NCBI GenBank assembly: GCA_964447605.1
Contig: CAYUTA010000004.1
Coordinates: forward strand, 15,465 to 79,464
DNA: 64,000 bases
Direction: 5' to 3'
Source: an uncultured Oscillospiraceae bacterium
GTDB lineage: Bacteria > Bacillota > Clostridia > Christensenellales > CAG-138
Position 1 is the stretch's first letter. Every line of letters starts with the position of its first letter. Position numbers and translations under genes: made by a program. The notes below the pieces were generated by a model that was given only the letters and a program-made list of their open reading frames with translations, ran no database searches and had not been told where the DNA came from. Shown piece by piece: positions 12,044 to 58,903 of the stretch.

Positions 12044-12069
12044 TACTTGTGGCATGGAGAAAAGGGGGG

Positions 12070-12831: not shown

Positions 12832-12878
12832 GCTGATTCCTTCCTTCCGGAACAGAGTGAAGTGTTCCTTTCCTTTTG

Positions 12879-34715: not shown

Positions 34716-34976
34716 ACCGCTTCGCCTTCCGCAGCGCGCTCACACCGCTTGCAGCTAGGTGATCGAACCAATCCACAGCATCCCATACACTGTAGCATTT
34801 TTGCTCGTTCTTGGAGAGGAACGTTAAAAACGACTACTTTCATAATGATACGAAGTGTTTGCTGAAATCTTTACAAAAGACCGTGAACAACGGGAACAAC
34901 GACGATTGCAACGCAGCATAAAGAAACGAGATCATCTTGAACGCTGATAAGAACACGGGAGATAACGGGCGGTAGC

Positions 34977-35183: not shown

Positions 35184-35330
35184 CATGAGCGGGAGAGCCG
35201 AGAGGTTCTCCCGCTCAGACTGTCAAAGAAAGCCAAATCAAGCGAAAGCGAGAGAAGGCTTTCTTTTTGTAAGAAAGTGTTGCGGCAAAATAGATAACAC
35301 ATTAAAAGAGAATTGATTTAAGCAAATAGT

Positions 35331-35465
35331 ACCGTCACGGCACATCCACATTGCTAGTTTTTTAAGGTTCATCGCCGTGTATTTGAGTTTGACCCAGTTT
35401 GTGACCGCACGCAAGCCGCGGTGTTGCGTGTATTGCATACCGTATTTGGGGCATCGATGAAGTTT
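35331..35465 (-). pseudogene. C-terminal fragment of an IS1182/IS5-type DDE transposase
   Basis: KYGMQYTQHRGLRAVTNWVKLKYTAMNLKKLAMW matches the conserved C-terminal block (..HGMRYTQYRGL..V....L.FAAMNLKKLA.W) of IS1182-family transposases. No upstream catalytic domain is present. Confidence 0.6.
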
Positions 35466-35558
35466 TACTGAATGATACCGAGGGTTTTCTTGATTCTGCC
35501 CAGTGTTCTTGCATGGGAGCATACTTTTCAGCAGGGCGTGCTAACAGCTTCGATCCAT

Positions 35559-38881: not shown

Positions 38882-38886
38882 ATATC

Positions 38887-40146: not shown

Positions 40147-40165
40147 TTCTTATCCTCCAAAATGC

Positions 40166-40993: not shown

Positions 40994-40994
40994 C

Positions 40995-41912
40995 TTAATC
41001 CTTGCTGTCCTTAATGCGCAACACCAACAGCCCGAAAATGGCCGTTATGAAAAATACAATCACACCGTAAGCGGCGCTCATGCCGTATAGCTTTTTGCCA
41101 AACTCTTTATAGACTGCCGTGTTGATGAGCTCTGTGCTGCCCGCGGGACCACCGCCAGTGAGCACAAACACGATATCAAAGGTCTTGAGTCCTTGCGAAA
41201 GGTTCAGCAACAGATTGATGATGAACGAGGGTATCATGCGCGGCATAGTGATAAAGAATAGCTTTTGAATGCTGTTTGCACCGTCGATGCCGGCCGCTTC
41301 ATACAAGCTCTTGTCAATCAACTGAAGACCGGCAAGATAGATGACCATGTTAAAGCCCGTTTGCTTCCATACGTCCACCGCCATGGTTGCGCCAAGTGCA
41401 GTTTCCGGCGTTGTTAGCCATGGATGAACAAGCGATTCTAGGCCGATCGCGCTCAAAAACTGGTTGAAAAACCCGCTTGTCATCAGCAGCGATCCAAACA
41501 TCAATCCGATGATGAGCGGCGACAACATGCTGGGCAAGAAAAAAATAGCGCGCATGGCATTGCGGCTCTTGAGCCCTTCGTTAAATGCAAGCGCAAGCAG
41601 AAAGCCCAGTACGTTTTTGAATACGGTGGTCACAAAAGCATACCATATGGTACGCACTATGATTGCAAGCAATTCAGGGTTGGAAAAGATCTTTTGAAAA
41701 TTGGCAAACCCGATGAATTTGGCTGTCTCCTGCGTTATTTTGATTGCATTCCAGTTGGTAAGCGAATAGTAGAAATTGATGACAACGGGTGTCATGAACA
41801 GGATGGTATACAGCAGCAACGCGGGTGCAGAAAACCCTGTTTTGTAGATTTTCCTCTGGTTCAAGGGAGAAGCCCCCTTCCTCTTGAAATTAAGAGGAGC
41901 GGCGGCAACCAT
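40995..41912 (-). CDS. carbohydrate ABC transporter permease
   Basis: EAA loop SLYEAAGIDGANSIQKLFFITMPRMIP and 6 TM helices. Confidence 0.9.
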   Translation of the reverse strand: MVAAAPLNFKRKGASPLNQRKIYKTGFSAPALLLYTILFMTPVVINFYYSLTNWNAIKITQETAKFIGFANFQKIFSNPELLAIIVRTIWYAFVTTVFKNVLGFLLALAFNEGLKSRNAMRAIFFLPSMLSPLIIGLMFGSLLMTSGFFNQFLSAIGLESLVHPWLTTPETALGATMAVDVWKQTGFNMVIYLAGLQLIDKSLYEAAGIDGANSIQKLFFITMPRMIPSFIINLLLNLSQGLKTFDIVFVLTGGGPAGSTELINTAVYKEFGKKLYGMSAAYGVIVFFITAIFGLLVLRIKDSKD

Positions 41913-41956
41913 GCCTGCCGCTCCCCTGAAACTCGGTAGCTTATTAGGTGTTAGCG

Positions 41957-43303
41957 TTATTCAGCAACGGTATCAAACATGGTGGCGCGATACTCGTCGA
42001 TGGCAGTGATGAACTGATCCACGCTCGTCGTGCCGGCTGCGAAGCCTTGCAGATACTTGTAGATGTCGCCATCCCAGTAGAGGACATATTTGATGAGCAT
42101 GACAACCGGGGTTTCACTGCGCTCGAGCAAATCGGTGGTTGCAGTGGTGGCAGAAACGCTCTCAACACCCTCAAACGCGGAGGACACGAGGTCGGTACGG
42201 GCTGCATAGTAGGTTTCGAGGTTCTCGTCGCGTGCAAGGAAGTCAAGGAAGAGCTTGCAAGCTTCGATGTTGGAGCTATTCTTGTTGATGTACTTGGAGA
42301 TGCCGCCGCCGTTGCTTACGGCAGCCTGGTTGTCTAGAAGCGGGCAGGGGAACATGCCAAAGGTATCGGTTGCGCCGTTTGCATACAGCTCAGCAGCATA
42401 GGCAGAGTAGGTGAACATCATGGCGCATTCGCGATTCTGAAGTGCGGGGTAGCTGCCAAACCAGTCTTCTGCCTGGCCATCGTTGGTGAAGTACTTGGGC
42501 GATCCGCCATCCTTGGCTTCCAGCAATCCCTTGACCTGCTCAAGGCCGTTGCGAAGCGCTGCGATGTCGGCCCACTTGTTGTCTTTTCCGGCATTGAGAT
42601 ACTCAACGTAATCCGGTTTTTCTGCTTCGATGGACGGCGTTAGAGCATATACCCAACTCTGCGTATGCCACACACCGTTGATGCCCTCGTACAAAGGCGT
42701 AACACCGAGAGCTTTGATCGCATCGCACAGAGCGATGAACTCAGCCCAAGTGGTGGGTACGGTCAGGCCGTTTTCTTCAAAGAAGGTTTTGTTGTACAGA
42801 ATGCCTTCAAAGTCAACGCCCCAGGTGGAGAAACCAAGCAGCTGACCATCAACGGTGTTGGCTTCCTTTGCCCAATCGACCAGACGATCTTCCCATTCGG
42901 AACCGGTCAAATCCAAGGCGATTTCGGGGATGCCGGCGGACTTCATTTCGCCGCCTGCTGCATACATGAACATATCCACAGCATTGCTGCCGCCGGACAG
43001 GCTCGTGCCAAGAAGCGTTGCATAGCCGTTATCGGGTGTCAGGAGAATTTTGACTTCGACGCCGGTTTCATCTTCGAACTTCTTGAACAGTTCACGGTCA
43101 ATATCCTTGATCCAGTTCTGCGAAGCCATCAGGGTGATGGAATTCGGCGGGGTGGCTTCCGATGTGGGTTCCTGCACGACCGCCGGCTTTTCGGCAGACG
43201 CGGCCGGGACAGTTTCTACAGCAGTTTGCGGCGTGGTGGTGCAAGCCATGGCCATGGGCAACACGATCAAGGCAACCAGCACAAGACAGAGCAGTTTTTT
43301 CAT
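41957..43303 (-). CDS. sugar ABC transporter substrate-binding lipoprotein
   Basis: Lipobox MKKLLCLVLVALIVLPMAMACTT and a family-1 SBP body. Confidence 0.85.
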   Translation of the reverse strand: MKKLLCLVLVALIVLPMAMACTTTPQTAVETVPAASAEKPAVVQEPTSEATPPNSITLMASQNWIKDIDRELFKKFEDETGVEVKILLTPDNGYATLLGTSLSGGSNAVDMFMYAAGGEMKSAGIPEIALDLTGSEWEDRLVDWAKEANTVDGQLLGFSTWGVDFEGILYNKTFFEENGLTVPTTWAEFIALCDAIKALGVTPLYEGINGVWHTQSWVYALTPSIEAEKPDYVEYLNAGKDNKWADIAALRNGLEQVKGLLEAKDGGSPKYFTNDGQAEDWFGSYPALQNRECAMMFTYSAYAAELYANGATDTFGMFPCPLLDNQAAVSNGGGISKYINKNSSNIEACKLFLDFLARDENLETYYAARTDLVSSAFEGVESVSATTATTDLLERSETPVVMLIKYVLYWDGDIYKYLQGFAAGTTSVDQFITAIDEYRATMFDTVAE

Positions 43304-43577
43304 TGCAGTTTCTCCTTTAAGATAATTTGATGTGCTTGCAGGAATTTACTCCCTGCTCTGTCTATTACACTAGCATTATGATTCCGTTTCAAACAGGCAC
43401 AGGCTTGACAACCCGATGTGGACAAAATTGATATTTTGGTAAAAGCAGCTTTTTCCCACACAAAGAGTGCGGCATAATACATATAGACCGCTTCATGAAC
43501 CTGCGATGCAATGCAAGCTATGCCGCTGCATCATACCATAACAACGATAGAACAATCAAATTCTTAAGGAGCATACT

Positions 43578-44585
43578 ATGACATCCTCATGGGAAACCAT
43601 CACCGCTTGCGGTGGCAATCGCCAAAGGTTACAGCGCATCACATGGCCTTATGACAAGTATCCCGACATGCCGCAACTGACCGCCGGTGCGCGCATTACG
43701 TTGCTCGACACCGTGGGGCCTGGGGTCGTCACGAATCTGCATGTTTCCAACTATGAATATCTCGATGATGTACTCGAGAGCAGCAGCGCGCGGGAGCCGG
43801 ATGCAGCAAGCCGCTTGTTGATCGAAATTACCTACGATCATCATGCCGTTGCCGACATTGCCATGCCGTTGTTCGACTTTCTTGGCGACGTAGATGCCGC
43901 TTGCGATTTCTATTCCACCTGCTATTTTTCCAAAGTGCGGCTTTCGCATAACTTTCGCCTGCCGATTCCGTTTCGTCAAGCCATCCGCATCGACATTGTG
44001 AATCCCACGAAAACCGACCTGATCGGCTATGCAGATCTGCAGTGGGAAGCACTCGACGCATTGCCGAAAGGCTGTGGATACCTGAGCGTGGATTATCGCC
44101 GCGGATGCGCGAACTTGCCAGAGGAAATCGTTACACTGTGCGATATTCAGGCAAAGGGAAGCATCGTTGCCCATTGGTTTTCCATTTGCAGCGACTTGCC
44201 CTTTGCAAAGGAGGGTCAGTATGTTTGCGAGGGGAATCAGGAATTCTACCTGGACTACGAAACCGAACCCTCCCTTGAATACCTTGGCACCGAAGACGTC
44301 TACGGCTACTCTTGGGGCTTTCTCGGTTCTGCGAGCGATGGCTACAGTGCCATTATCCGCTATGATACAGATCAACAGGGTGTTGCAACTATTTCCATGC
44401 TGCGCTGCCGTACCCTGGATCGCATTCCGTTTGAACGTGCCTGCAAGGTGTCGCTCGATTATACGCAGGAGTTTTTTTCCAAGCTTTCGAAAAACCCGCT
44501 GCATCAAACAGGGGTCTTTCGCGACCGTCTGGGCGCAAGTTTTGCTGCCGAATACAGTAGCTGCTTTTATTATTACAGAGCATAG
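43578..44585 (+). CDS. DUF2961 / glycoside hydrolase family 172 protein
   Basis: AAGGAG SD. GPGVVTNLHV and CEGNQEFYLDYETEPSLEYLGTEDVYGYSWGF match the DUF2961 hallmark (EGDE..Y.DGE..P...GTGTEDYF). Confidence 0.7.
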   Translation: MTSSWETITACGGNRQRLQRITWPYDKYPDMPQLTAGARITLLDTVGPGVVTNLHVSNYEYLDDVLESSSAREPDAASRLLIEITYDHHAVADIAMPLFDFLGDVDAACDFYSTCYFSKVRLSHNFRLPIPFRQAIRIDIVNPTKTDLIGYADLQWEALDALPKGCGYLSVDYRRGCANLPEEIVTLCDIQAKGSIVAHWFSICSDLPFAKEGQYVCEGNQEFYLDYETEPSLEYLGTEDVYGYSWGFLGSASDGYSAIIRYDTDQQGVATISMLRCRTLDRIPFERACKVSLDYTQEFFSKLSKNPLHQTGVFRDRLGASFAAEYSSCFYYYRA

Positions 44586-44955
44586 CTTTCCTGATACGGC
44601 CTGTTTTCAAACCATTCTTGGGGCTTTTTTGCGCAACTTTCGGTAGACTATTTTTCCAGATCATTTTCTCCATCACGCATTCCTCCGCCTGCCCTCGAAT
44701 CGCATTCATCGCGCCGACCCATGCCATTTGGTCACATGCTTTTCCTTCTTCCGTAATGCCTTGCGACTTTGCAAGCTGTAGCATGTATTCCCATACTTGC
44801 TCTTTACACAGCTCATTCCGCTCAACAAGCCAGTTTTCCAACTCTCCAGAAAACAGCAATTCTGTATAAAGATTCTGATTGTACTGCTTCATGTGCGCAA
44901 GCAACCTGCGTCCGTATTTGCCTATGTTCCCCTCGTTGATTTGTGTTCTGCTCAT
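44389..44955 (-). CDS. tnpV: TnpV-like transposon protein with aberrant 3' extension
   Basis: IGKYGRRLLAHMKQYNQNLYTELLFSGELENWLVE...GITEEGKACDQMAWVGAMNAIRGQAEECVMEKMIW matches TnpV of Tn4451-type elements over the first ~100 aa. The remaining ~85 codons overlap the convergent GH172 gene and look non-native. Confidence 0.6.
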   Translation of the reverse strand: MSRTQINEGNIGKYGRRLLAHMKQYNQNLYTELLFSGELENWLVERNELCKEQVWEYMLQLAKSQGITEEGKACDQMAWVGAMNAIRGQAEECVMEKMIWKNSLPKVAQKSPKNGLKTGRIRKAMLCNNKSSYCIRQQNLRPDGRERPLFDAAGFSKAWKKTPAYNRATPCRHVQTECDPGYGSAAWK

Positions 44956-45095
44956 GTTCTTGTCCTCCTGTTTGTTGTTTTATCAGAAGTGCTAAAAGCT
45001 GTCGTGTGCCACAGCAGACGACATAGCACAAATATACAACAAATCCGAACCCTTCACCGATCAATATCGGGTTCGAGTTCGGATTTGAATTTGAA

Positions 45096-45115
45096 TGGCG
45101 GAGAGACTGGGATTC
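45096..45115. repeat. proximal att-like direct repeat (3' end of tRNA-Ser)
   Basis: Identical 20 nt to 34696-34715. Confidence 0.85.
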
Positions 45116-45183
45116 GAACCCAGGGTCCCGTCAGGGACACGGCATTTCGAGTGCCGCACGATCGACCACTCTGACATCTCTCC
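45096..45183 (-). tRNA. tRNA-Ser (anticodon CGA)
   Basis: The minus strand reads GGAGAGATGTCAGAGTGGTCGA..GCGGCACTCGAAATGCCGTGTCCCTGACGGGACCCTGGGTTCGAATCCCAGTCTCTCCGCCA. It has a 7-bp acceptor stem, a long variable arm, a T-loop GGTTCGAATCC, anticodon loop CU-CGA-AA, and an encoded CCA. Confidence 0.9.
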
Positions 45184-45347
45184 GCGCCGCAAAAAACAAC
45201 CGGTGTTTTTCAGCGACATTCAGTATACTAAAAAGCTTCGCAAATTGCAATGTTTTCGTGAAAAAACATGTTGCCGTCGTTGCCGGGCGCACGCCCCGTG
45301 TTATAATAGATAAAAACGAGACACGGTCAAGGAAAGGAGTTGTCTGT

Positions 45348-48204: not shown

Positions 48205-48233
48205 TTGCAATATAATTTCAAACTGATTATAAT
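48205..48233 (+). promoter_or_regulatory. sigma-70-type promoter TTGCAA-17-TATAAT of the BMP-ABC cluster
   Basis: -35 at 48205-48210, a 17-nt spacer, and -10 at 48228-48233, in an AT-rich tract. Confidence 0.55.
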
Positions 48234-48254: not shown

Positions 48255-48330
48255 AATAAGTTTCCGGCCCCATTCATTCGATTTGAGCCGTTGCGCTCAA
48301 ACAAACAATACCAAATCAGGAGGAGCACAC

Positions 48331-49437
48331 ATGAAAAAGAGATGGTCGGTATCGCTGATGGTCTGGATTCTTGTTACATCGCTGTTGATTGGCTGCGCAC
48401 AGCAGCCGGCCCGGCAGGGCGCCGCGACGGACGTACCGCAGCCGGTTCCTTCCGGGGCGGCAGCGCCGGCCGAACGGAAAAAGCTGGTTGTGATCAGCAA
48501 CCGCAGCTTTGGCGACAAGGGCCCTATCGATAGTCAGGCAGCGGTTCTGCCTGAGCTCGAGGCGCTCGGGGTTGAGACCAAAACGCTGGAGTCGCTCTCC
48601 GCGGACGTATTTGAAGAGGATATTCGTGCAATGGCAAACGCCGGATATGACATCATCGCAACGTCCTTCCCGCCGGTATCGGAGGCCGTGGTTTCCGTTG
48701 CAAAGGATTTCCCGGATACCGCCTTTATCAGCATCTATCAATTCAGCAACGCCGGCGAAACCAGGTACGACAATATCTGGTCGACCGAATATAAAACACA
48801 GGAGATGCTCTATGCGCTTGGCTGCCTTGAAGCAAAGCTGACCAGAACCAATAAGGTCGGCTTTATCAGCGGACAGGAAACTGCAAGCTCCAACTCCGGC
48901 ATCAACGGCTTTATGGATGGCGTCATAGCCACAAACCCGGACTGCGAGGTTGAATATATGTATGCCGGCACGTATGACGACCCGACCGTTGGAAAAGAAA
49001 TTGCGCTGGCAATGATCAGCCGCGGCGTTGACTGTATCATAACCGCCGCGGGCAAAACCAGCACGGGCGCGATCGAGGCGTGTCAGGAAAAGGGCGTGTT
49101 TATCGTTGCGGACAACGGCGACTTTTTTGATCTTGGTCCGAATGCGATGGTCACCTACTTTCTTACCGATTTCGGCCAGGTGGTGAAGCAGGGCGTTTCG
49201 GATTATATAAACGGAGAATTCAAGGGCGGCGAACACACCATTATGTCCGTATTTAATGGCGGAGCAGTTGTAAAATGGGACGCTTCCGAACGCTTTAACG
49301 AGCAGAATCCAGAGACCGCAGAGCTTGTGCGGGGAGCGATTGCATACGCAAAGGAGCAGGAAGCAAAGGTTATCTCCGGCGACCTCGTTGTCGAATTCAA
49401 ACCGGATACGCCCCGGGCAATCCGAAAGGGTTCATAA
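48331..49437 (+). CDS. BMP family (PnrA/Med-like) ABC transporter substrate-binding lipoprotein
   Basis: AGGAGG SD. Lipobox MKKRWSVSLMVWILVTSLLIGCAQ. Body with FGDKGPIDS, GFISGQE and a BMP-type fold pattern. The ORF-track extension to 48205 is AT-rich promoter DNA. Confidence 0.8.
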   Translation: MKKRWSVSLMVWILVTSLLIGCAQQPARQGAATDVPQPVPSGAAAPAERKKLVVISNRSFGDKGPIDSQAAVLPELEALGVETKTLESLSADVFEEDIRAMANAGYDIIATSFPPVSEAVVSVAKDFPDTAFISIYQFSNAGETRYDNIWSTEYKTQEMLYALGCLEAKLTRTNKVGFISGQETASSNSGINGFMDGVIATNPDCEVEYMYAGTYDDPTVGKEIALAMISRGVDCIITAAGKTSTGAIEACQEKGVFIVADNGDFFDLGPNAMVTYFLTDFGQVVKQGVSDYINGEFKGGEHTIMSVFNGGAVVKWDASERFNEQNPETAELVRGAIAYAKEQEAKVISGDLVVEFKPDTPRAIRKGS

Positions 49438-49439
49438 AA

Positions 49440-49826
49440 ATGAACGGGAACGTCTATACGCACGGGTTCCTTGTCGATGACCTGGATGCTGCAATCCGAT
49501 TTTATGAAAGCAAGCTTGGCTTTCGTGTCAAGCGACGCACGCAGACCTTTGCCGCGATGGAGACAAATGCGCCGTCCGGCCTGTTCTTCTGGCAATATGC
49601 GCACATTTTTGAGCATCTTGGCCAAGAAGCCGCCGGGAAGGTGCGGCACAGGCAGATGATCGCCATGCTGTATGAGACGAGGGAGCAGGTAGACGCGCGC
49701 GTAGAAGAGCTGCTCCTTGACGGTGTGGAGCTGGTTGCGGCCCCACAGGAATGGGCCTGGAATGCATATGCCGCCTACCTCGTGGATTGCAAGGGCTTTT
49801 TGTGGGAGTTATGGACATGGAATTGA
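49440..49826 (+). CDS. VOC (glyoxalase/bleomycin-resistance/dioxygenase) family protein
   Basis: THGFLVDDLDAAIRFYESKLGFRV is a typical VOC beta-alpha-beta-beta-beta N-terminal module. 128 aa. Confidence 0.8.
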   Translation: MNGNVYTHGFLVDDLDAAIRFYESKLGFRVKRRTQTFAAMETNAPSGLFFWQYAHIFEHLGQEAAGKVRHRQMIAMLYETREQVDARVEELLLDGVELVAAPQEWAWNAYAAYLVDCKGFLWELWTWN

Positions 49827-49837
49827 TGGAGAGGAAC

Positions 49838-50230
49838 ATGATCCGGTATAACCATACCGCGTACGGTCTGCTCGTTGATGACATTGCAGAAGCGGTTGCG
49901 TTCTATCGCGATACGATGGGCTTCCATGTGCTGCGTCAGTCGGATACCTTCGCGCAGATGGATGCGGGCGGCACGTTGGCGTTCTTTCTTTGGAAATGGT
50001 CGCATCTTTGCGAGCATCTCGGCCGGGAGGCCATGCAAAAGGTGCGGCATCGCACGCAGTCTGCATTGCGCTTTGAACGGCCGGACGATGTCGACCGCGC
50101 CTATCTTGCGCTGAAAGAGCAGGGCGTAAACTTTGTGGCCGCGCCGGGCAACTGGGAATGGAATGCACGCGCCGCATATTTCGTTGACGACAACGGATAC
50201 ATGTGGGAATTGTTCTGCTGGCTCAAATAA
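49838..50230 (+). CDS. VOC family protein (tandem paralogue)
   Basis: MIRYNHTAYGLLVDDIAEAVAFYRDTMGFHV aligns residue-for-residue with the preceding gene, and both end ..WELxxW. Start 49838 (GGAGAGG SD) was chosen by alignment with the paralogue. Confidence 0.75.
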   Translation: MIRYNHTAYGLLVDDIAEAVAFYRDTMGFHVLRQSDTFAQMDAGGTLAFFLWKWSHLCEHLGREAMQKVRHRTQSALRFERPDDVDRAYLALKEQGVNFVAAPGNWEWNARAAYFVDDNGYMWELFCWLK

Positions 50231-50300
50231 AGGATCAATGCGCCTGCTTGCCGTCAATCAGGCGGCAGGCGGGCGTGTAAGGAAGGGGTCGAAGGGTAGC

Positions 50301-51827
50301 ATGGAAAACGCGCTTTCAATGCGGCATATTGTGAAAACGTTCCCCGGTGTTGTTGCCAATAACGACGTCTCGCTGCATGTCGAACGGCGGAGCATACATG
50401 CGCTGGTCGGCGAAAACGGCGCGGGGAAAAGTACTCTGATGAATATCCTCTGCGGTCTTGTCGGGGCTGACGAAGGCAGCATCCTGCTCAATGGGAAAGA
50501 GACGGCGATCCGTTCAACCTTTGATGCGATCAAGCAGGGTGTCGGCATGGTGCATCAGCATTTCATGCTCGTACCGGATATCACGGTCCTTGACAATATT
50601 CTGCTTGGCGCGGATACGCCTAAAAAAGCGGGTTTAACGGACTATCGGCAGGGACGCAGGGCGGTTGGACAAATCATGGATCAATATGCCTTTCATGTTG
50701 ATCTCGACCGCAAGATCTATGAGCTTTCGGTCGGTGAAATGCAGCGGGTAGAGATCATCAAATCCCTTTATCGCGGTGCGGAGATTCTGATTTTGGACGA
50801 GCCCACCGCGGTGCTGACGCCGAATGAAATCCGGCAGCTGTTTGACGCAATGCGCAGCTTTGTCGCGCGGGGCAAAACGATATTGTTCATTTCGCATAAG
50901 CTCAGGGAAGTGCTCGAAATTTCCGACGAGATTACCGTTATGCGCCAGGGCAGGGTGACGGGAAACGTAAAAACCCGCGAGGTCGATGAAATCATGCTTG
51001 CCACGATGATGGTAGGGCGTGACGTGGTATTGCGTGTGCATAAGGGGAAGGCTGCCCCCGGCGGGGAAGCGCTCCGGCTTGACCGGTTTTTTGCAAACAA
51101 TGACAGAAGGCTGCCCGCGGTCAGGGACGTGTCCTTCTCGGTTCGACGGGGCGAAATTGTCGGCATTGCCGGCGTCGACGGCAACGGGCAGACGGAGCTT
51201 GTCGAGGCGCTCTGCGGCATGCGCAGGCAAACGGGCGGCCGCGTTTATCTCAACGGGAAGGACATCACCCATTGCGGCGGGCTCGAACGACGCAGGCGTG
51301 GTATCGCGCATATTCCGGCCGACCGCATGGTATTTGGCGTCAACAAAACCTGCAGTGTGGAGGAAAACCTGATTCTATCGGTTTACAACATCAAGCCCTA
51401 TTGCCGGCTGGGCTTCATGCTTTGGCGGAAGCTGCGCGCGTTTTCAGAACGGTTGGCACGCCGTTTTCACATCGTTGCGGCTTCGATTGAGACGCATGTC
51501 GGCAATATGTCCGGCGGCAATATGCAAAAGGTGGTCGTTGCCCGGGAAATGTCGGCCGAGCCGGATATTTTGATTGCGGCGCAGCCGACGCGCGGCGTTG
51601 ACGTCGGCGCGATTGAATTCATTCACAACGAAATCATTGGCCTGAGAGATAAAAACAAGGGCGTCTTGCTGGTTTCGATGGAGCTCGATGAGATATTATC
51701 GCTTTCCGACCGGGTTCTGGTGCTCTATGAGGGCGAAATTGTGGCCGAGTTTGAAAATGAAAACCTGAACGAGCTTGAGATCGGACTTTACATGACCGGC
51801 GCAAAGAGGATGGAGCGATCGATATGA
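50301..51827 (+). CDS. ABC transporter ATP-binding protein, duplicated ATPase (sugar/nucleoside CUT2-type)
   Basis: Two ABC cassettes: [27 protein letters not shown], and a second with [14 protein letters not shown]. Typical partner of BMP-type SBPs. Confidence 0.9.
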
Positions 51828-52948
51828 AGGACAGGATGAAAACAGCCTGGTTCGAAAAAGCCAGGCGCAATGGCCGGCTGGTCGGAAGACAGGCATTGAT
51901 AGTGCTGACCGCGCTGCTGGCTGCAACGATACTGGTGATCGTGTTCGGGTTTGAGTGGGATTCCGTTTTGCAGGGAATCCGGGGCGCTGTTGTCAACGAC
52001 GTCAACGGTACGCTCAGATGGTTTACGCCGCTGCTGCTGACGGGGTTATCCTGCGCGCTTGCATTCCGCGGCGGCATATGGAACATGGGGGTGGACGGAC
52101 AGCTTTACATGGGCGCCATTGCCGCAACCGCGGTCGCCATCCGGTGTGCCGCGCTTTCCCCCGGGCCGCTGCTTGCGCTGGTTTTCCTTGCCGGCATGGC
52201 GGCGGGGGCGCTGTGGGCGGGGATCGCCGGCTTGCTGCGCGTGTATTGCGGGGCCAAAGAGGTTGTGACCACCATTCTGCTCAACTACATCGCATTCCAT
52301 TTTACCGATTATATGGTGCTTGGCCCGCTCAAGGGTTCCGGCGGATATGCGGTTGCGGAGTCGAGCGACATGATCGGCGAGCAGATCTGGCTTACGAAAC
52401 TGATTCAAGGCTCAACGGTTACAACGGGCCTGATCATTGCGTTTGTCTCGGTGGTCGTAGTTTATGTTTTGACAACCAACACACCGTTTGGCTATGAAAA
52501 CAGGATGCTCGGCACCAATCGCGCGTTTGCAAACTACGGCGGAATCAACGTCAGGCGTACGTTTATGGCTACGATTCTGATCAGCGGAGCAATTGCGGGG
52601 CTTGCGGGCGTAATTGAGATTCTCGGCGTGCATCACCGCTTCCCGATTCGCTTTTCGAACAACCTTGGCTTTGACGGAATCGTCGTATCGATTCTGGCAA
52701 ACGACAGCGCGATTGGCGTTCCGCTGAGCGCGTTCTTCTTTGCGGTGCTGCGCAACGGCTCCTATAACATCGAGCGGCTTTCAGACGTACCAAAGTCCCT
52801 GGTGCTTGTCGTGCAGGCCATGGTCATATTGATGGTTGGCGCAAGGTTTGCAATGCCGGAGTTAAAACGGAAGGATATCATCAAAAAGATCAGGCGCGGA
52901 CTCCACTTTGGCGAGCCGGCGGGAGGTTCCAATGAACGACTTGTTTAA
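51824..52948 (+). CDS. ABC transporter permease (BMP/CUT2-type)
   Basis: About 9-10 TM helices. WNMGVDGQLYMGAIAA is typical of this permease family. Shows a 4-nt overlap with the ATPase gene. Confidence 0.85.
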   Translation: MKDRMKTAWFEKARRNGRLVGRQALIVLTALLAATILVIVFGFEWDSVLQGIRGAVVNDVNGTLRWFTPLLLTGLSCALAFRGGIWNMGVDGQLYMGAIAATAVAIRCAALSPGPLLALVFLAGMAAGALWAGIAGLLRVYCGAKEVVTTILLNYIAFHFTDYMVLGPLKGSGGYAVAESSDMIGEQIWLTKLIQGSTVTTGLIIAFVSVVVVYVLTTNTPFGYENRMLGTNRAFANYGGINVRRTFMATILISGAIAGLAGVIEILGVHHRFPIRFSNNLGFDGIVVSILANDSAIGVPLSAFFFAVLRNGSYNIERLSDVPKSLVLVVQAMVILMVGARFAMPELKRKDIIKKIRRGLHFGEPAGGSNERLV

Positions 52949-53855
52949 TGCTGAAACGATTGCCGCGACATTGCGCATGACCACGCCGCTGATATTGGTG
53001 GCGCTGGGCGGCCTCATGTGCCAGCGCGCGGCGATATTCAATATCGGCCTGGAAGGCTATATGCTGATGGGCGCGTTCTGCTCGATTTTATTTATCAACA
53101 TTTCGGGCAGCAGCCTTGCGGGGTTAATCGGCGGAATTCTCGGCAGCGTTCTGCTGAGCCTCGTGTATGCGTTGTTTGTTATAAAATTCAAAGCCAACCA
53201 TATCCTTACGTCCATTTCGGTCAACTATGTTGCAACAGGGCTGACAAGCTTTTTGCTGATGCCGTTATTCGGTGTGAAGGGAAGTTTTCGCCCAACCAAT
53301 ATGCAAGCGCTTCCGACGGTGAACATACCGTTTCTTGAGGAAGGGAGCTTTCTTGACATCGCGTTCAACAATCACACGGTGACGGTGTATGTTGCGCTGG
53401 CGCTGATTGCGGTGGTGTACGTGCTGCTGTTTCAAACGCCGTTTGGCCTGCGCGTCCGCAGCGTTGGCGGCAATGAAAACGCAGTCCGTACCGCGGGCGT
53501 CAGGCCGGAAACCATAAAGCTGCTGGTAATTATCTGGGCCGGCGTGCTCTGCGGCGTTGCCGGCGCCCATCTGTCAACGGGGTATGCGTCGGAGTTTACC
53601 GAGAGCATCACACAGGGGCGCGGCTTCACAGCCTTCTCCGCGATTGTATTCGGCGGGGCGCATCCTGTGTTCAGTTCGCTTGCGTGTTTGCTGTTCGGCC
53701 TTGCCGACGCGGTTGGTATCCGTCTGGAATTGGCCAATATGGGCGTGCCGGCCGGCGTGATCAAAATGTTCCCGTATGCGCTGGCCTGCATCGCGGTGGC
53801 AGTGAGCTCGCTGGTGCAGCTCAAGAAGAGGACGTCGTCGAAAGAGCTGTTTTAG
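52932..53855 (+). CDS. ABC transporter permease (BMP/CUT2-type)
   Basis: GGGAGG SD. TTPLILVALGGLMCQRAAIFNIGLEGYML is typical of the second permease. Confidence 0.85.
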   Translation: MNDLFNAETIAATLRMTTPLILVALGGLMCQRAAIFNIGLEGYMLMGAFCSILFINISGSSLAGLIGGILGSVLLSLVYALFVIKFKANHILTSISVNYVATGLTSFLLMPLFGVKGSFRPTNMQALPTVNIPFLEEGSFLDIAFNNHTVTVYVALALIAVVYVLLFQTPFGLRVRSVGGNENAVRTAGVRPETIKLLVIIWAGVLCGVAGAHLSTGYASEFTESITQGRGFTAFSAIVFGGAHPVFSSLACLLFGLADAVGIRLELANMGVPAGVIKMFPYALACIAVAVSSLVQLKKRTSSKELF

Positions 53856-53888
53856 CGGCAATCTTGATACGGGAAGGAAGCAAACCAA

Positions 53889-55112
53889 ATGAAACTGAGA
53901 AAATATTTTAGAACGGAAACCTATTATGTCAGCCCTGCAAACTATGCAAACGAGGTGTTTGACCAGTACAAGCTGCCCCGCAAGGTGGAACTGCACGATT
54001 CCACCCTGCGCGATGGCGAACAGCAGGCAGGCGTCGCGTTTTCCAAAGCGGATAAGATCAAGATTGCCGAACTGCTTGCAGAGGCCGGCATCCATCGCAT
54101 TGAGGCCGGCATGCCCGCGGTTTCCAAATCGGATCAGGAGGCCATACAGGCCATTGTGAAAAGCAATTTCGGGCCGAAAATATTTGCATTTTCCCGCGCT
54201 GTGGAATCCGATATCCGGCTTGCCGCCGACCTCGGCGCGGACGGCGTTGTTGTCGAGATCCCCGTCAATGAAGAGTTGATCCGCTTCGGGTATTGCTGGC
54301 CGAAGGACAGGGCGGTCGATGCCGTGGTTTCCGCGACAAGGCTTGCGCATGCGCTTGGGATGCAGGTCGATCTGTTTTTGATGGATTCCTCCCGCCTTGC
54401 GAGCGATGATTTTGTAGCGCGCGTGCAAAAAATCAAGGAAGAAGGCTGGGTTGATTCGTGCAGCCTCGTCGATACGCAGGGCGTACTGTCCACCTCGGCG
54501 ACGCGTTTCCTCGTAAAGAACGCCGTTGAGAAGCTGCGCGTTCCGATCGAGGCACATTGTCACAACGATCTTGGTCTTGCGGTTGCAAACTCGCTGGCCG
54601 CCTTTGAAGCGGGCGCTTCGGCCATCCATACCACGGTGCTCGGCATTGGGCCGCGTGCGGGACAGGCCGCGACGGAGCAGGTCGCCCTTGCGCTTCGCCT
54701 GCTGTACGGCGCGGATATCGGCGTCAACCTGGAGAAATTGTATAGCCTCGGCCGGTCCGTGGGTGAAATTTCCAGATTTCAGTATCCGGTCAATCAGCCC
54801 ATTGTTGGCGATGTGTTGTATACGATTGAATCCGGCATGCCGGCGTCCTGGTGGCAAAACATTAAAAAGGAGCATCCGCTCGCGCTTTACGGCATCCTGC
54901 CACAGGCGGTGGCCCGTCCCGAAATCGAGATTGCGCTCGGCAAGAGCAGCGGGAACGCCTCCATCCGGTTCTGGCTTGAAAAGCGGAATCTGACGTTGAA
55001 AAACGATGAAAGCGTTGCGGAGATTCTTCAGAAGGTCAAGGAGAAGGCGACGGAGAAGAAGGGCGTTTTAAGCGAGCGGGAATTTCTTGCGATCATAGAG
55101 CCTTACGTATAG
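53889..55112 (+). CDS. DRE-TIM metallolyase (HMGL-like; short 2-isopropylmalate/homocitrate/citramalate synthase family)
   Basis: LHDSTLRDGEQ, RIEAG, and the metal site EAHCHNDLGLAVANSLAAFEAGASAIHTTVLGIG. It has 407 aa and lacks the LeuA regulatory domain. Confidence 0.8.
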   Translation: MKLRKYFRTETYYVSPANYANEVFDQYKLPRKVELHDSTLRDGEQQAGVAFSKADKIKIAELLAEAGIHRIEAGMPAVSKSDQEAIQAIVKSNFGPKIFAFSRAVESDIRLAADLGADGVVVEIPVNEELIRFGYCWPKDRAVDAVVSATRLAHALGMQVDLFLMDSSRLASDDFVARVQKIKEEGWVDSCSLVDTQGVLSTSATRFLVKNAVEKLRVPIEAHCHNDLGLAVANSLAAFEAGASAIHTTVLGIGPRAGQAATEQVALALRLLYGADIGVNLEKLYSLGRSVGEISRFQYPVNQPIVGDVLYTIESGMPASWWQNIKKEHPLALYGILPQAVARPEIEIALGKSSGNASIRFWLEKRNLTLKNDESVAEILQKVKEKATEKKGVLSEREFLAIIEPYV

Positions 55113-55115
55113 GGA

Positions 55116-56306
55116 GTGAAACGCATGAAGCAGGCATGGTTGAAGAATCGATATGCAATCGTCGGCGTGGGCATGACGCCGCAGGGGAAGGTTCCCGGCA
55201 GAAGCGCCGCGAGCTTTCATGTGGAGGCATGCATCAACGCTATGCAAGATGCCGGCCTTGGCAGGGACGCGATTGACGGCTTGCTGCTCTACCGGCACTT
55301 CGCCCCGCTCGACGGCGATATCGATACGACTGCATTTACGGTTGCGGAGCAGCTCGGCATGCGCCCAACGGCGCTGAGTCAGGAGGCGTATTGTACAAGA
55401 ACGTGGCTAACGCATGCCGTCGGGCTGCTCGAAACCGGGGTATGCAACTATGTGCTGGTATCCTATGGAGACAATGGGCGGTCATTCAGGCGCGCGTTTG
55501 TCAATGAACTGGATCACGGCAGGCCGACCGACGAGCTGGCTGCATACGGCGATTTTTCGACCATGGCCAAGTATGCCATGATCGCGCGTTCAGCCATGCA
55601 CGCTTATGGAACCGGCCCGCATATCTGGCGCAATATTGCCGTGGCCCAGCGCGCGTTTGCCAATTTAAACGAGCGTGCGTCGATGTATGGCAAGGCGCTT
55701 TCCAATCAAGACTATGATGCGTCGCCTTATATCGTCGAGCCGTTCCGCCTGCTGGATGCAACGCCCGTAACAGACGGCGGAAGGGCGCTCCTCCTCACCA
55801 CAATGGAGCGGGCGCGTGACCTGCGCTCCAGGCCGGTTGCGCTGCTTGGGTTCGGGCAGGCCAACATGCCGGCCGCACCAAGCCGCATGACGTTTGAGGA
55901 CTCGCAATATGCGGCAAAAACCGCCTGCATGGCCGCGCTTTCCATGTCCGGCATTTCCCTTGAGGAGATCGATTGCTGCGAGATTTACGACTGCTTTACC
56001 TACACGGTGGAGGCAACGCTGCGTGATTACGGGTTTTTCAAACCGGATGAAGCGGAAGCGTTTTTGTCGGCGGCGCGCATTGGCCCCGGCGGCGCGCTGC
56101 CGGTCAACACCTCGGGCGGCATGCTGTCGGAAGGTTACTTTATGGGGTTGACGCCGGTAACCGAAGCGGTGCTGCAGCTGCGCGGCGCATGCGGCGCACG
56201 CCAGCTTGGCACGCTGCCGGGCACAAAAAAGCCAGAACGGATTCTTTGCAGTGACAATGGCGGCGTTTTCCAAAGCCACTGCACGATTGTACTTGGAGGG
56301 ACGTGA
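55116..56306 (+). CDS. thiolase-like protein (SCP-x/DUF35-partner type) with non-canonical active-site residues
   Basis: SCP-x-type thiolase layout (YAIVGVGMTP; NTSGG; QLRG..G.RQ). It reads EIYDCF where SCP-x thiolases have HDCF, and SEGYFMG where thiolases have GHP. Cys93 sits at the nucleophile position but in CTRT rather than CASG. An alternative start is ATG 55125. Confidence 0.75.
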   Translation: MKRMKQAWLKNRYAIVGVGMTPQGKVPGRSAASFHVEACINAMQDAGLGRDAIDGLLLYRHFAPLDGDIDTTAFTVAEQLGMRPTALSQEAYCTRTWLTHAVGLLETGVCNYVLVSYGDNGRSFRRAFVNELDHGRPTDELAAYGDFSTMAKYAMIARSAMHAYGTGPHIWRNIAVAQRAFANLNERASMYGKALSNQDYDASPYIVEPFRLLDATPVTDGGRALLLTTMERARDLRSRPVALLGFGQANMPAAPSRMTFEDSQYAAKTACMAALSMSGISLEEIDCCEIYDCFTYTVEATLRDYGFFKPDEAEAFLSAARIGPGGALPVNTSGGMLSEGYFMGLTPVTEAVLQLRGACGARQLGTLPGTKKPERILCSDNGGVFQSHCTIVLGGT

Positions 56307-56731
56307 CCATGGGAGAGCGTGCGTATTCCCGTCTTTTGCAGAAATTTCCGCCGGAAGCGGAGCCGTTCAAAGAAGGGCTTCAACAAAAGCGTCTGCTGAT
56401 TATGCAGTGCGGCGACTGCGGCGCATTTCGCCTGCCGCACGGCATCGCCTGCCCGCAGTGCGGCGGCATGGCCTATCGCTGGAAAAAGGTGACCGGCGCG
56501 GGGGAGGTGGATTCGTTTGTGATATTCCACCGCGCGTTCCACCCTGGAGCCGGACCGACGCCGCCCTATGTAGTGGCGAGAATACGGCTGAAGGAAAACA
56601 TCTTCTTTTTGGCAAACATTGTGGGGCTTGCGCCGGATATGGTATACTGTGGACAGAAAGTTACGCTACATTGGGAAGCAAACGGCGAATGTGGATACTT
56701 GCCGCAATTTCGGCCCGCGGCAGCCCAGTAA
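56303..56731 (+). CDS. DUF35 OB-fold/zinc-ribbon protein (thiolase partner)
   Basis: Rubredoxin-like CGDCG..CPQCG followed by an OB-fold (GEVDSFVIFHRAFHPG). Shows a 4-nt overlap with the thiolase-like gene. Confidence 0.85.
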   Translation: MTMGERAYSRLLQKFPPEAEPFKEGLQQKRLLIMQCGDCGAFRLPHGIACPQCGGMAYRWKKVTGAGEVDSFVIFHRAFHPGAGPTPPYVVARIRLKENIFFLANIVGLAPDMVYCGQKVTLHWEANGECGYLPQFRPAAAQ

Positions 56732-56753
56732 CGATTGATAAAGGAGATGTGCC

Positions 56754-57428
56754 ATGGCATTGCTTGCTGAAAACAAAGCGATTCTTTCGGAGCAGATTGT
56801 ACAAAAAATCATTGATGAGATTAAATGCGGCAATCTCAGGCCCGGTGAAAAGCTGCCGACGGAAAAGCAGCTTGTCGATTTGTTTCAGGTAAGCAGAATC
56901 ACGGTCCGCGAGGCGCTGCGTACGCTGAAGGTCATGAACATCATCGATATCAAGCAGGGCAAAGGCGCGTTTATAACATCAACCGACGTAAACCTTTTGA
57001 TCGATCAGCTGGATTTCGTATTCCTGCTGGAGAAAACCACCATTTCCCAATTGTTTGAGGCGAGGCGCGCGCTGGAACCGCAGATTGCCGCCATTGCGGC
57101 GGCGCGTATCACAGACGAAGAGGTTGCCGAAATGCGCGTCATGAGCCAACAGGATGGATATGATATTCTTCTCCATCAGAAAATCGCCGAGTGTACGAAA
57201 AACCCCGTGCTTGTGCGGTTTGTGTCCAGCATCTGGAGCATGGGCGAGATCAGCCGCCAGATGACGTCCAAAATTCCGGGTGTGAAAACGGTTGCATATT
57301 CACAACATGCGGCGCTGATTGAAGCATTGGCCGCCCATGACGGCAATCAGGCGCGGGCATTGATGTCAAAGCATCTGGAATTTGTTGAGAATACCTATCG
57401 AATGAATAATCCGGGAACAGAAAATTAG
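56754..57428 (+). CDS. GntR family transcriptional regulator, FadR/FCD subfamily
   Basis: wHTH LRPGEKLPTEKQLVDLFQVSRITVREALRTL plus an all-helical FCD domain (LFEARRALEPQIAAIAA). Confidence 0.9.
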   Translation: MALLAENKAILSEQIVQKIIDEIKCGNLRPGEKLPTEKQLVDLFQVSRITVREALRTLKVMNIIDIKQGKGAFITSTDVNLLIDQLDFVFLLEKTTISQLFEARRALEPQIAAIAAARITDEEVAEMRVMSQQDGYDILLHQKIAECTKNPVLVRFVSSIWSMGEISRQMTSKIPGVKTVAYSQHAALIEALAAHDGNQARALMSKHLEFVENTYRMNNPGTEN

Positions 57429-57769
57429 CCGCAGCAAACATACCGCCTGTGAGCCTGCGCCGAAAACCGGCTCCGGCGGCAAACCGCACGGGAAAACCGC
57501 CCCAATTGGGCGATTCGCTTGGGCGAATAAATCGCCGGAGCCGGAATCGGCCGGTTCAGCGCTTTTGGGCGGCTTCGATCTGCCCGGTTTGCTGCACCAT
57601 CCCGGATCCGCTTCGCCGGACTGCCGAATGTATGCTTGCCTTTGTACGGGTGTGGGCGCTTCGTGCGGGGGTATTCTGAGGCGGTCAATCGCGCGGGAAC
57701 CGACGGATCCGTCGCGTTTGCGGCCGGCCCCCTTTCCCCGCCGCTCCCGGCTTATAAGAACCGCAGGAG

Positions 57770-58903
57770 CTATCGGCACATGCCGGCTGAAAGCAGGCGG
57801 CCGCGCACATACACGGATTTGATATCCAAAGCAGCATCCAGCAATACAAGATCAGCCGGAAAGCCCGTCTGAATGAACCCGCGCTCTGCATCCAGCCGCG
57901 TTGCCCGCGCCGGATTGTGCGTTGCGGCAGCGACCGCAGTCTCGAGCGGAACCCCGAACCGTACGGCGTTTTTCAGCGCATCGTGCACGGTGATAACCGA
58001 GCCCGCGAGCGTATCGGAGCCGCACAGCGTGCAGCGGCCGTTTTGGAGCGTAATCGGCTGGCCGCCGAGCTCGTATGCGCCGTCCGGCATGCCCGCGCAG
58101 CGCAGCGAATCGCTAATCAGCACAATGCGCTCCGGGAACAGCCGGAAAGCCGCGCGGACCGCAGATGGATGCACATGCAGCCCATCGCAAATCAGCTCCG
58201 CATAGGCGCCTGCATCCATACCCGCGCCGATGGGGCCGGGCGCGCGGTGCGCGAGGCCGTTCATGCCGTTATAAAGGTGCGTAAGCTCCGTTGCGCCCGC
58301 GGCAAAGCCGGCGGCCGCAGCGTCATAGCCTGCGGCGGTGTGTCCGACGGCGACGGTGCAGCGCGCTGCTGCGGCGTGCTTGATAAACGGAATCGCGTTC
58401 GGCTCTTCGGGCGCGACGGTCACCATACGCACCCGGTTGCCGGAAGCCGTGTTGACCCGGTCGAAAAAGGCGGCGTCCGGCGCATGCAGATCGTCCGCGA
58501 ACTGTGCGCCCCGCTTGGCGTAGGAGAGGAACGGTCCCTCCATGAACATGCCAGCGCAATCGGCCATTCCGGGTTCGGGCGCAAACGCGGCGATGGCTTC
58601 CGCCGCGGCACAGAGCGTATTGAGCGGCAGCGTCATGGTTGTGGCAAGAAAGCTCGTTACGCCATGCGCGGCATAGTGACGCGCCATCTTCGGCAGATCG
58701 TCCGCCACGCCGTCGCTGAAATCACAGCCTATCGCGCCGTGTGTATGCACGTCGATAAGGCCCGGCAGAAGATATTGCCCGGCCGCATCAATGCCGTCTT
58801 CATCCGGAAAATGTCCGATCTGCGTGATGAAATCGGTGAAACGCACGTCATATTTTACAAAATGTCCGTCCGGCAAAAATACGTTCGCGTGTTTAATCAG
58901 CAT
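57770..58903 (-). CDS. nagA: N-acetylglucosamine-6-phosphate deacetylase
   Basis: AAGGAGG SD. LLPGLIDVHTHG, VTVAPE, VAVGHTAA, THLYNGM, ELICDGLHVHP and VLISDS are canonical NagA motifs. Confidence 0.9.
   Translation of the reverse strand: MLIKHANVFLPDGHFVKYDVRFTDFITQIGHFPDEDGIDAAGQYLLPGLIDVHTHGAIGCDFSDGVADDLPKMARHYAAHGVTSFLATTMTLPLNTLCAAAEAIAAFAPEPGMADCAGMFMEGPFLSYAKRGAQFADDLHAPDAAFFDRVNTASGNRVRMVTVAPEEPNAIPFIKHAAAARCTVAVGHTAAGYDAAAAGFAAGATELTHLYNGMNGLAHRAPGPIGAGMDAGAYAELICDGLHVHPSAVRAAFRLFPERIVLISDSLRCAGMPDGAYELGGQPITLQNGRCTLCGSDTLAGSVITVHDALKNAVRFGVPLETAVAAATHNPARATRLDAERGFIQTGFPADLVLLDAALDIKSVYVRGRLLSAGMCR

Follow-up and report, generated by a model that had tools for sequence, protein, structure and literature searches.

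The window examined here is a stretch of 64,000 nucleotides (nt) from an uncultured Oscillospiraceae bacterium (assembly GCA_964447605.1, contig CAYUTA010000004.1, positions 15,465 to 79,464). The subject is the open reading frame (ORF) at 55116-56306 of its plus strand, which encodes a protein of the thiolase fold, here called THL, together with the DUF35 gene that follows it. As judged from alignments, the active site of THL is a three-way hybrid in which the Tyr pair of the steroid aldolase Ltp2, the catalytic Cys of the steroid aldolase Sal and the nucleophile Cys of the thiolases occur together. Such a combination is previously undescribed, and THL is an uncharacterised variant among the DUF35-dependent C-C lyases of the thiolase superfamily. 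Our tentative view is that the THL-DUF35 pair may be an aldol lyase/ligase acting on short acyl-coenzyme A (CoA) esters and small aldehydes, with an extra catalytic Cys whose presence is unexplained. To our knowledge, no aldolases of the thiolase superfamily have been characterised other than Ltp2 and Sal, steroid-specific enzymes from aerobic Actinobacteria and Proteobacteria. The papers that we found on YDCF, YDCY or YDHF sites dealt only with the steroid aldolases and with TbSLP, a Trypanosoma brucei protein, and a searchable full-text library yielded no literature on the THL clade or its gene context.

Translation of the ORF gives 396 amino acids, with C93 in the context CTRT, the motif Y291-D-C293-F, N331-TSGG and G-Y341-F. 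The 50-residue spacing of the two tyrosines, noted in the original prediction, was confirmed on the translation. In alignments to the DUF35-dependent thiolases 6esq and 7yvy, C93 fell on the nucleophile Cys of EAACASG, with E90-A-Y-C93 opposite the E-A-A-C nucleophile motif. Y291-D-C293-F was opposite H-D-C-F of 6esq and H-D-A-F of 7yvy, C293 having the position of the HDCF acid/base Cys in 6esq, and G-Y341-F was opposite the thiolases' G-H-A or G-H-P. These alignments place Y291 and Y341 at the catalytic-His sites, as had been claimed, and C93 and C293 at the catalytic-Cys sites of SCP-x-type thiolases. In the alignment to Ltp2 of known structure (TcLtp2, 6ok1), Y291 fell on the YDHF Tyr and Y341 on that of EAYIHG. 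Sequence alignment to Ltp2 and to archaeal DUF35-dependent thiolases thus came out in favour of the original prediction. With Sal, C293 aligned with the catalytic Cys304 and Y291 with Tyr302. The catalytic residues of Ltp2 are Tyr294, the base, and Tyr344, the acid, with His296 in the oxyanion hole; Sal uses the pair Tyr302 and Cys304 of YDCY and has Gln at the position of Ltp2 Tyr344 (PMC12329534). At the thiolase nucleophile position Sal has Gly, and an equivalent Gly is referred to in Ltp2 (PMC12329534). Our assignment of the nucleophile column came from the phmmer alignments to thiolases and the statement about Gly89 in that paper. A Cys at this site sets THL apart from Ltp2 and Sal, as the original prediction had it for Ltp2. 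That C293 is the counterpart of the Sal catalytic acid went unmentioned in the original prediction.

The ORF is numbered here from 55116, and the residue numbers given above are correct for that frame. A second candidate start, ATG 55125, lies 8 nt 3' of a Shine-Dalgarno-like AGGGAG, and the database copy of the protein (393 amino acids) has its N-terminus at this ATG. It is likely the real start, so the true numbering is probably 3 lower: C90, Y288, C290 and Y338. For DUF35, ATG 56309, which GGAGG precedes by 9 nt and the THL stop by 2 nt, is a more plausible start than GTG 56303. The 4-nt overlap of the two genes that had been described goes with the GTG start and is probably a 2-nt gap; with either start the genes are tightly coupled. 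These start-codon corrections leave the finding unchanged.

THL has the thiolase fold. Its sole Pfam match was Thiolase_C_1, a C-terminal thiolase domain, and an AlphaFold2 model (predicted local distance difference test score 85.9, predicted template-modelling score 0.89) matched the thiolases 6esq and 7yvy at template-modelling (TM) scores of 0.77-0.82. In a phmmer search of all PDB sequences, the best match was 4u4e, a 'putative thiolase' of Sphaerobacter thermophilus (4.5e-54, 35% identity), followed by the TcLtp2 aldolase 6ok1 (1.2e-35, 28% identity), the CtSal aldolase 9myr (1.4e-30) and the DUF35-dependent thiolases of Pyrococcus, 7yvy (7.7e-30), and Methanothermococcus, 6esq (9.7e-21). 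The model also ranked 4u4e best, then Ltp2, then Sal, with the thiolases after them. Hence the closest solved structures besides the uncharacterised 4u4e are those of Ltp2 and Sal. The best NCBIfam match, PRK06158, scored 225.7 bits against a cut-off of 421, so that the thiolase cut-off was missed.

THL resembles each of its relatives in part. With the TcLtp2-ChsH2 complex, a retro-aldolase of C3 steroid side chains, it shares the thiolase fold (Foldseek TM about 0.83), the Tyr pair at a spacing of 50 (Y294/Y344 versus Y291/Y341) and a DUF35 partner with a C4 zinc ribbon. It differs in that the oxyanion-hole His of YDHF is Cys (YDCF), the Gly at the old nucleophile site is Cys, and the DUF35, which in the Ltp2 complex is the C-terminal domain of a MaoC hydratase, is a free-standing protein in the window. 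Further, THL scored 203 bits against a cut-off of 469 with the Ltp-type NCBIfam model PRK07855, and no steroid-catabolic genes (the MaoC hydratase ChsH1/H2, acyl-CoA dehydrogenases) were found in the window or, among the neighbours examined, in 90 related loci. Membership of the steroid aldolases was rejected on these grounds: the steroid genes are absent nearby, the family scores lie below cut-off and YDHF is not kept. The suggested likeness to Ltp2 holds for the Tyr pair, the DUF35 partner and the structure ranking, and fails for membership of the family. The bile-acid C5 side-chain aldolase CtSal-Shy (9myr) has in common with THL the Y-D-C motif (YDC[YF], a Tyr-x-Cys dyad) and dependence on DUF35 (PMC12329534). 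Sal has Gln at the position of Y341 and Gly at that of C93, its partner Shy has a Cys3His zinc finger in place of the canonical CxxC-x10-CxxC ribbon, long loop insertions shape its steroid cleft, and its CoA-binding R216 is a Pro in THL.

The archaeal acetoacetyl-CoA thiolases 6esq and 7yvy share with THL the EAxC nucleophile motif, an SPY motif, similar loop lengths and a DUF35 partner, and 6esq also the Cys of the HDCF position. THL thus has the thiolase fold, the nucleophilic Cys at the start of helix N-alpha3 and the acid/base Cys. The archaeal thiolases differ in having both catalytic His residues, each of which is Tyr in all THL members examined, and an HMG-CoA synthase partner, which THL lacks; they are also less similar to THL (77-107 bits) than are Ltp2 (127 bits) and 4u4e (187 bits). 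The YDCF motif itself recurs in the T. brucei SCP2-thiolase-like protein (SLP), TbSLP (PDB 5ab4-7), which is very distant (about 21% identity) and has no DUF35 partner. The SLPs share none of the SCP-2 thiolase cysteines (PMC12329534), so TbSLP should have no nucleophile Cys. Finally, 4u4e, an uncharacterised structural-genomics entry, is the best match of THL in both sequence and structure and belongs to the same radiation of proteins with YDxF motifs; it differs in its YDSF motif, Gly at the nucleophile site and a His (THPG) at the second site.

The DUF35 protein, with a rubredoxin-like zinc ribbon ahead of its OB fold, exceeded the gathering scores of PF12172 (4.3e-09) and PF01796 (2.5e-15), and its best PDB match was the ChsH2-DUF35 of the Ltp2 complex (3e-22). 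Of the 90 related loci, 89 have a DUF35 gene after THL.

Conservation of the hybrid site was strict. Among 120 homologues at 60-72% identity, C93, R95, Y291, D292, C293 and F294 were 100% invariant, as were N331-T-S-G-G, E339 and Y341; C288 and Q89 were kept in 99%, and C359 was among the positions kept in at least 98%. C93, Y291, D292, C293, F294 and Y341 were also kept in the 90 fetched loci, which extend down to 50% identity and over several phyla. Invariance of the active-site residues across the clade argues that the hybrid site is not due to chance. When one genome per species was scanned, relatives of THL turned up in 301 genomes, and the 80 loci listed came from anaerobes only. The relatives include Clostridia (Oscillospiraceae, Christensenellaceae, Lachnospiraceae and Subdoligranulum), Syntrophomonadales, Desulfobacterota, Syntrophales, Dehalococcoidia, Anaerolineae, Desulfurella, Hippea, Aquificota and Campylobacterota.

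To the original prediction, THL was perhaps an intermediate or novel variant of the active site. When 1.84 billion cluster representatives were searched exhaustively with HMMER, 301 proteins came in at E <= 1e-30, with scores that dropped steeply past the clade's own representative (537 bits, then 356, 337 and 264). Nearly all of the neighbouring representatives have YDxF, and their GGA[ST] loop has Gly at the nucleophile position; because of this Gly, members of the YDxF radiation cannot be thiolases. Among these neighbours the shorter loop SQE-x-x-C-x-R was confined to the THL clade. In a neighbour-joining tree with 100 bootstraps, rooted on two thiolases as the sole outgroup sequences, the THL clade was monophyletic (96/100), its sister was the Gly-bearing group of P0123, which has YDCY and the Tyr (100/100), and in 0/100 bootstraps was it the first branch beside the thiolases. 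Since the clade is nested in a lineage already without the nucleophile, C93 looks like a secondary gain rather than a relic, as far as a neighbour-joining tree with two outgroup sequences can tell. An evolutionary intermediate between thiolases and aldolases is accordingly not favoured and probably wrong. The gene contexts of P0123 and of a second sister protein, P0124, held no informative neighbours.

The related loci were typed by tblastn with a set of reference proteins and fell into three types. Type A is a cluster like that of the window, found at 55-70% identity in other Clostridia, in an Anaerolineaceae metagenome-assembled genome (MAG) and in MAGs labelled "uncultured Bacteroides sp.". 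In these loci the GntR-family regulator gene is followed by genes for a D-2-hydroxyacid dehydrogenase and a CoA-disulfide reductase (NCBIfam PRK09564, 462 bits versus a cut-off of 458) and mostly also for an NAD-aldehyde dehydrogenase; most complete type-A loci carry a non-acylating aldehyde dehydrogenase. Type B, the commonest Clostridial arrangement, consists of a CoA-acylating aldehyde dehydrogenase (EutE/AdhE-N-like), THL, DUF35 and a CoA-disulfide reductase. In 26 non-redundant type-B loci, the first three genes were present in 26/26 and the reductase in 25/26, with the acylating dehydrogenase directly upstream of THL and gaps of 2-3 nt between DUF35 and the reductase gene; the module at 8610-12933 of locus L003 is an example. 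The CoA-disulfide reductases of the related loci retain VSYGACGLPYY, the motif with a single redox Cys.

The genes most often found around the type-B module included a class II aldolase in 15/26 loci (one above the FucA cut-off, 266 versus 264 bits), an MtnA-like isomerase in 10/26 (328 versus 271 bits) and an MtnK-like kinase in 9/26 (379 versus 275 bits), the last two being genes of the dihydroxyacetone phosphate (DHAP) shunt. A 2-hydroxyacid dehydrogenase was found in 9/26, the lactate racemase LarA in 7/26 (570 versus 460 bits), a UxaA-like dehydratase in 7/26, an Fe-alcohol dehydrogenase in 6/26 and a major facilitator superfamily transporter in 5/26. In L003 the module lies beside two MtnK genes, MtnA and a class II aldolase, and some other modules are flanked by FucA and a phosphotransferase system (PTS) set. 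Type C comprises 44 non-Clostridial loci with THL-DUF35 alone, in which recurrent neighbours were looked for and none was found; one of the 44 (L057) has a copy of the reductase, at a distance.

What is shown above is the fold of THL, its residue equivalences and their conservation, its pairing with DUF35 and the gene contexts; from these we infer a reaction, its direction and substrates, and roles for C93 and for the reductase. THL and DUF35 would form a complex like those of Ltp2 and Sal, a thiolase-fold dimer flanked by zinc-ribbon/OB-fold subunits, and would reversibly join a small aldehyde and acetyl-CoA, or another short acyl-CoA, to give a 3-hydroxyacyl-CoA. By homology with Ltp2 and Sal, Y291 would act as base or acid on the beta-oxygen, and C293, perhaps with Y341, would handle (de)protonation at the alpha-carbon of the acyl-CoA enolate. 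The substrate would be small, hydrophilic and probably sugar-derived, not a steroid. In most Clostridia the aldehyde would be supplied by the neighbouring class II FucA/DHAP-shunt aldolase, and in clusters of the window type possibly by the atypical HMGL-like protein encoded upstream of THL; the co-encoded aldehyde dehydrogenases would interconvert it. C93 would sit at the site of the aldehyde/beta-carbonyl carbon and is assumed to serve a covalent or redox-sensitive step. Such a step would explain the co-encoded CoA-disulfide reductase in the Clostridial loci outside the window.

Aldol chemistry is favoured because the active-site residues are equivalent, the clade lies nested among YDxF proteins that have no nucleophile, the DUF35 partner is Ltp2-like, and aldehyde dehydrogenases and aldehyde-releasing aldolases are constant associates, and also because of a loop, residues 113-152, without the insertions of Ltp2 and Sal. 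This loop is nearly gapless against the Pyrococcus thiolase, whereas Ltp2 and Sal have insertions there, which weakly suggests a fit to a small substrate. Aldehyde metabolism is the constant of the Clostridial THL neighbourhoods. The enzyme Sad is an aldehyde dehydrogenase. It is listed as a further enzyme beside Sal in the steroid pathway scheme (PMC12329534).

Several observations weigh against an aldol reaction. A Cys at position 93 is not required by the aldolase mechanisms known so far, but both C93 and R95 are invariant, a sign of covalent catalysis. A supplier of 3-hydroxyacyl-CoA, be it a hydratase, an acyl-CoA synthetase or a CoA-transferase, was found in no cluster, and an aldehyde dehydrogenase or reductase nowhere in the 64-kb window. 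The type-B order, acylating dehydrogenase and then THL, fits an acyl-CoA equally well as an aldehyde, and the CoA-disulfide reductase has no explained role. No recurrent neighbour accompanies the pair in Desulfobacterota, Dehalococcoidia, Desulfurella and others, where it stands by itself. Lastly, R216 of Sal, the Arg that binds the CoA pyrophosphate, is Pro204 in THL, in an SPY motif shared with the archaeal thiolases. The suggestion of aldolase instead of thiolase activity in the original prediction is partly supported by the residue equivalences, but C93, the acylating dehydrogenase and the CoA-disulfide reductase keep a thiolase-type covalent mechanism alive.

That mechanism, a thiolase re-invented without His, is the most serious alternative, though we consider it doubtful. 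C93 would be the acyl acceptor, its pKa lowered by R95; C293 would be the acid/base for the alpha-carbon of acetyl-CoA, as in SCP2 thiolases; and Y291 and Y341 would replace the His residues as hydrogen-bond donors of an oxyanion hole. Its reaction would be the condensation or thiolysis of short 3-ketoacyl-CoAs, possibly substituted ones, made from the acyl-CoA of the upstream acylating dehydrogenase, and the CoA-disulfide reductase would maintain CoA and both catalytic cysteines in the reduced state. Both thiolase cysteines are indeed invariant and at the exact positions, the EAxC and SPY motifs resemble those of the archaeal DUF35-dependent thiolases, and in type B the acylating dehydrogenase directly upstream and the reductase directly downstream are nearly constant. 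Redox inactivation through the catalytic Cys pair occurs in the Clostridium acetobutylicum thiolase. Against a thiolase, both catalytic His residues are replaced in every member, and we know of no natural thiolase without the GHP His. The clade is, moreover, nested among nucleophile-less proteins, its closest characterised relatives are aldolases, and its scores lie far below the NCBIfam thiolase cut-offs.

It is unlikely, though conceivable from these sequences, that THL carries out a reaction new to the superfamily, in which an aldolase-derived Tyr/Cys/Tyr site with a regained C93 would work in a redox-neutral module with the reductase and the acylating dehydrogenase and convert aldehydes to products at the level of acetyl-CoA. 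If so, small reactive alpha-substituted aldehydes would come from aldolases acting on sugars or S-adenosylmethionine by-products, and methanethiol plus acetyl-CoA would be an example of the products. Alternatively, acetaldehyde and acetyl-CoA would give 3-hydroxybutyryl-CoA, bypassing thiolase and dehydrogenase in gut butyrate producers.

A more specific proposal, to which we would give an even smaller chance, is that THL and the CoA-disulfide-reductase-like flavoprotein carry out a new thiol/disulfide-dependent reaction on alpha-substituted acyl-CoAs. For example, 2-(methylthio)acetyl-CoA, made from the DHAP-shunt aldehyde 2-(methylthio)acetaldehyde, would undergo reductive C-S cleavage to methanethiol and acetyl-CoA. 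C93 would attack sulfur, the leaving acetyl-CoA enolate would be stabilised by an oxyanion hole of thiolase type, and with the disulfide re-reduced by NADH from the acylating dehydrogenase, the four-gene module would be redox-neutral. A precedent for thioether cleavage with an enolate leaving group is 2-ketopropyl-coenzyme M oxidoreductase/carboxylase. The order acylating dehydrogenase-THL-DUF35-reductase, which is invariant in 25-26 of the 26 type-B loci and has 2-3 nt gaps at its end, suits this proposal, as do the retained VSYGACGLPYY motif, the one reductase score above the NCBIfam cut-off, the conservation of C288 and C359 besides C93 and C293, and the MtnK, MtnA and aldolase genes of L003, with similar genes in 9-15 loci. 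The proposal is, however, entirely inferential. Many loci pair the module with FucA, a PTS or lactate racemase, and their aldehyde would be lactaldehyde or glycolaldehyde, neither of which carries sulfur; nearly all loci outside the Clostridia are without an adjacent reductase, the only copy in type C being the distant one, and there is no reductase in the window. Very improbable, lastly, is a PhlC-type, CoA-independent acyltransferase or beta-diketone cleavage enzyme with C93 acylated by a free beta-dicarbonyl compound: complexes of the PhlC/PhlB and MucABC type, which combine thiolase fold and DUF35 without CoA, were among the structural matches, the window cluster has no CoA ligase or transferase and the CoA-pyrophosphate-binding Arg of Sal is absent, but the similarity to PhlC is weak (E 1e-7 to 8e-6, 17-18% identity), a KAS-III-like third subunit (PhlA) was not found in any locus, and the genes are tightly linked to those of a CoA-acylating dehydrogenase and a CoA-disulfide reductase.

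If the preferred reading of an aldol lyase/ligase is true, the THL clade would bring the chemistry of these aldolases to strict anaerobes, common gut Clostridia among them, with small CoA esters as substrates. Its hybrid active site would be a natural experiment on the interconversion of thiolase and aldolase chemistry. Were THL to join acetyl-CoA to small aldehydes, it would be attractive as a biocatalyst for forming C-C bonds and could provide a missing disposal step for the aldehydes that arise when fucose, pentitol, 5-deoxyribose or methylthioribose is broken down. Noteworthy in its own right is the invariant link to a CoA-disulfide reductase.

The HMGL-like protein, whose gene stops 3-12 nt before the THL start, had homocitrate synthase 6ktq as its best PDB match (1e-49) and scored about 278 bits against NCBIfam cut-offs of 460-517 for models of the homocitrate/isopropylmalate synthase kind. 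It keeps the metal/2-oxoacid motifs LRDGEQ and HxHND, plus IEAG and DTxG. All of the Claisen synthases aligned (NmIPMS, the isopropylmalate synthase 4ov4, MAM and homocitrate synthase) have the motif H-x-S-G-I-H-Q-D-G; the protein reads T-I-E-S-G-M-P-A-S-W-W there, and both His residues are absent in 121/121 members of its subfamily. The second His of H-x-S-G-I-H takes part in acetyl-CoA enolisation in Claisen synthases. Loss of both His residues suggests that an acetyl-CoA-dependent synthase may be the wrong assignment. A pyruvate-forming aldolase or lyase is conceivable instead, one that would release an aldehyde next to THL like the class II aldolases of type B, and the protein probably belongs to an uncharacterised DRE-TIM subfamily with a function of its own. 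Other gene contexts, which lack THL, hold relatives at 46-53% identity, so the HMGL-like protein is not an obligate partner. In the one paper found that names HMGL-like and DUF35 together, HMGL-like (04019), DUF35 (04021) and acetyl-CoA acetyltransferase (04022) genes lie side by side in an acetone/butanone-induced cluster of Desulfotomaculum arcticum (PMC8084838).

In the window, THL and DUF35 belong to a cluster of ten genes on the plus strand with minimal spacers (48328-57428), listed below with a promoter candidate.

Table. Features of the THL gene cluster in the window
Feature	Position	Strand	Basis or remark
Sigma-70-like promoter candidate	48205-48233	+	TTGCAA-17-TATAAT; 10/12 consensus match only
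BMP/PnrA-family lipoprotein, binding protein of ABC importer	48328-49437	+	Pfam Bmp 2.9e-44
VOC/glyoxalase-fold protein 1	49440-49826	+	128-aa ORF, 44% identical to VOC protein 2
VOC/glyoxalase-fold protein 2	49820-50230	+	Pfam Glyoxalase 9e-18
ABC transporter ATPase, CUT2 type	50301-51827	+	Pfam ABC_tran x2; NCBIfam sugar/B6-type ATPases all below cut-off
ABC permease 1	51824-52948	+	BPD_transp_2 4e-42
ABC permease 2	52908-53855	+	BPD_transp_2 6e-39
HMGL-like (DRE-TIM) protein, atypical	53889-55112	+	HMGL-like 6.7e-59
THL, C93 / Y291-D-C293-F / Y341 site	55116-56306	+	Likely start ATG 55125
DUF35 protein	56303-56731	+	Pfam zf-ChsH2 + OB_ChsH2_C; C4 zinc ribbon + OB fold
GntR/FCD-family regulator, last cluster gene	56754-57428	+	Pfam GntR + FCD

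The positions of the BMP-type and GntR/FCD genes are kept in type-A loci, and several other type-A loci also have a paired VOC gene. The only PDB similarities of the VOC genes were weak ones to two thiol-dependent enzymes, the FosB thiol transferase and lactoylglutathione lyase; the VOC pair and the CoA-disulfide reductase of the related loci hint at CoA-thiol-dependent chemistry. After the GntR gene the cluster stops, and a convergent nagA-like gene comes next (57428-57770 region). A tblastn search of the whole window for the 2-hydroxyacid dehydrogenase, the CoA-disulfide reductase and the aldehyde dehydrogenase found none of them. ORFs of matching size at 8.5-13 kb were considered as dehydrogenase/reductase genes and rejected, being in fact a GT87 gene, a gene for a Zn peptidase and one ORF that matched nothing in Pfam.

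Two features lie apart from the cluster. A c-di-GMP-I riboswitch aptamer was found at 13133-13231 on the plus strand (51.3 bits against a gathering score of 35), and the listed ORFs that flank it are on the minus strand. The stretch from 34000 to 45200 has a low GC content (0.44-0.49 versus about 0.58 elsewhere) and holds ORFs which, from their translations alone, we take to encode a sensor histidine kinase, a Gfo/Idh/MocA-like oxidoreductase and a sugar ABC transporter. A tRNA-Ser(CGA) gene (45096-45183, minus strand) lies beside this stretch, which may be a horizontally acquired island.

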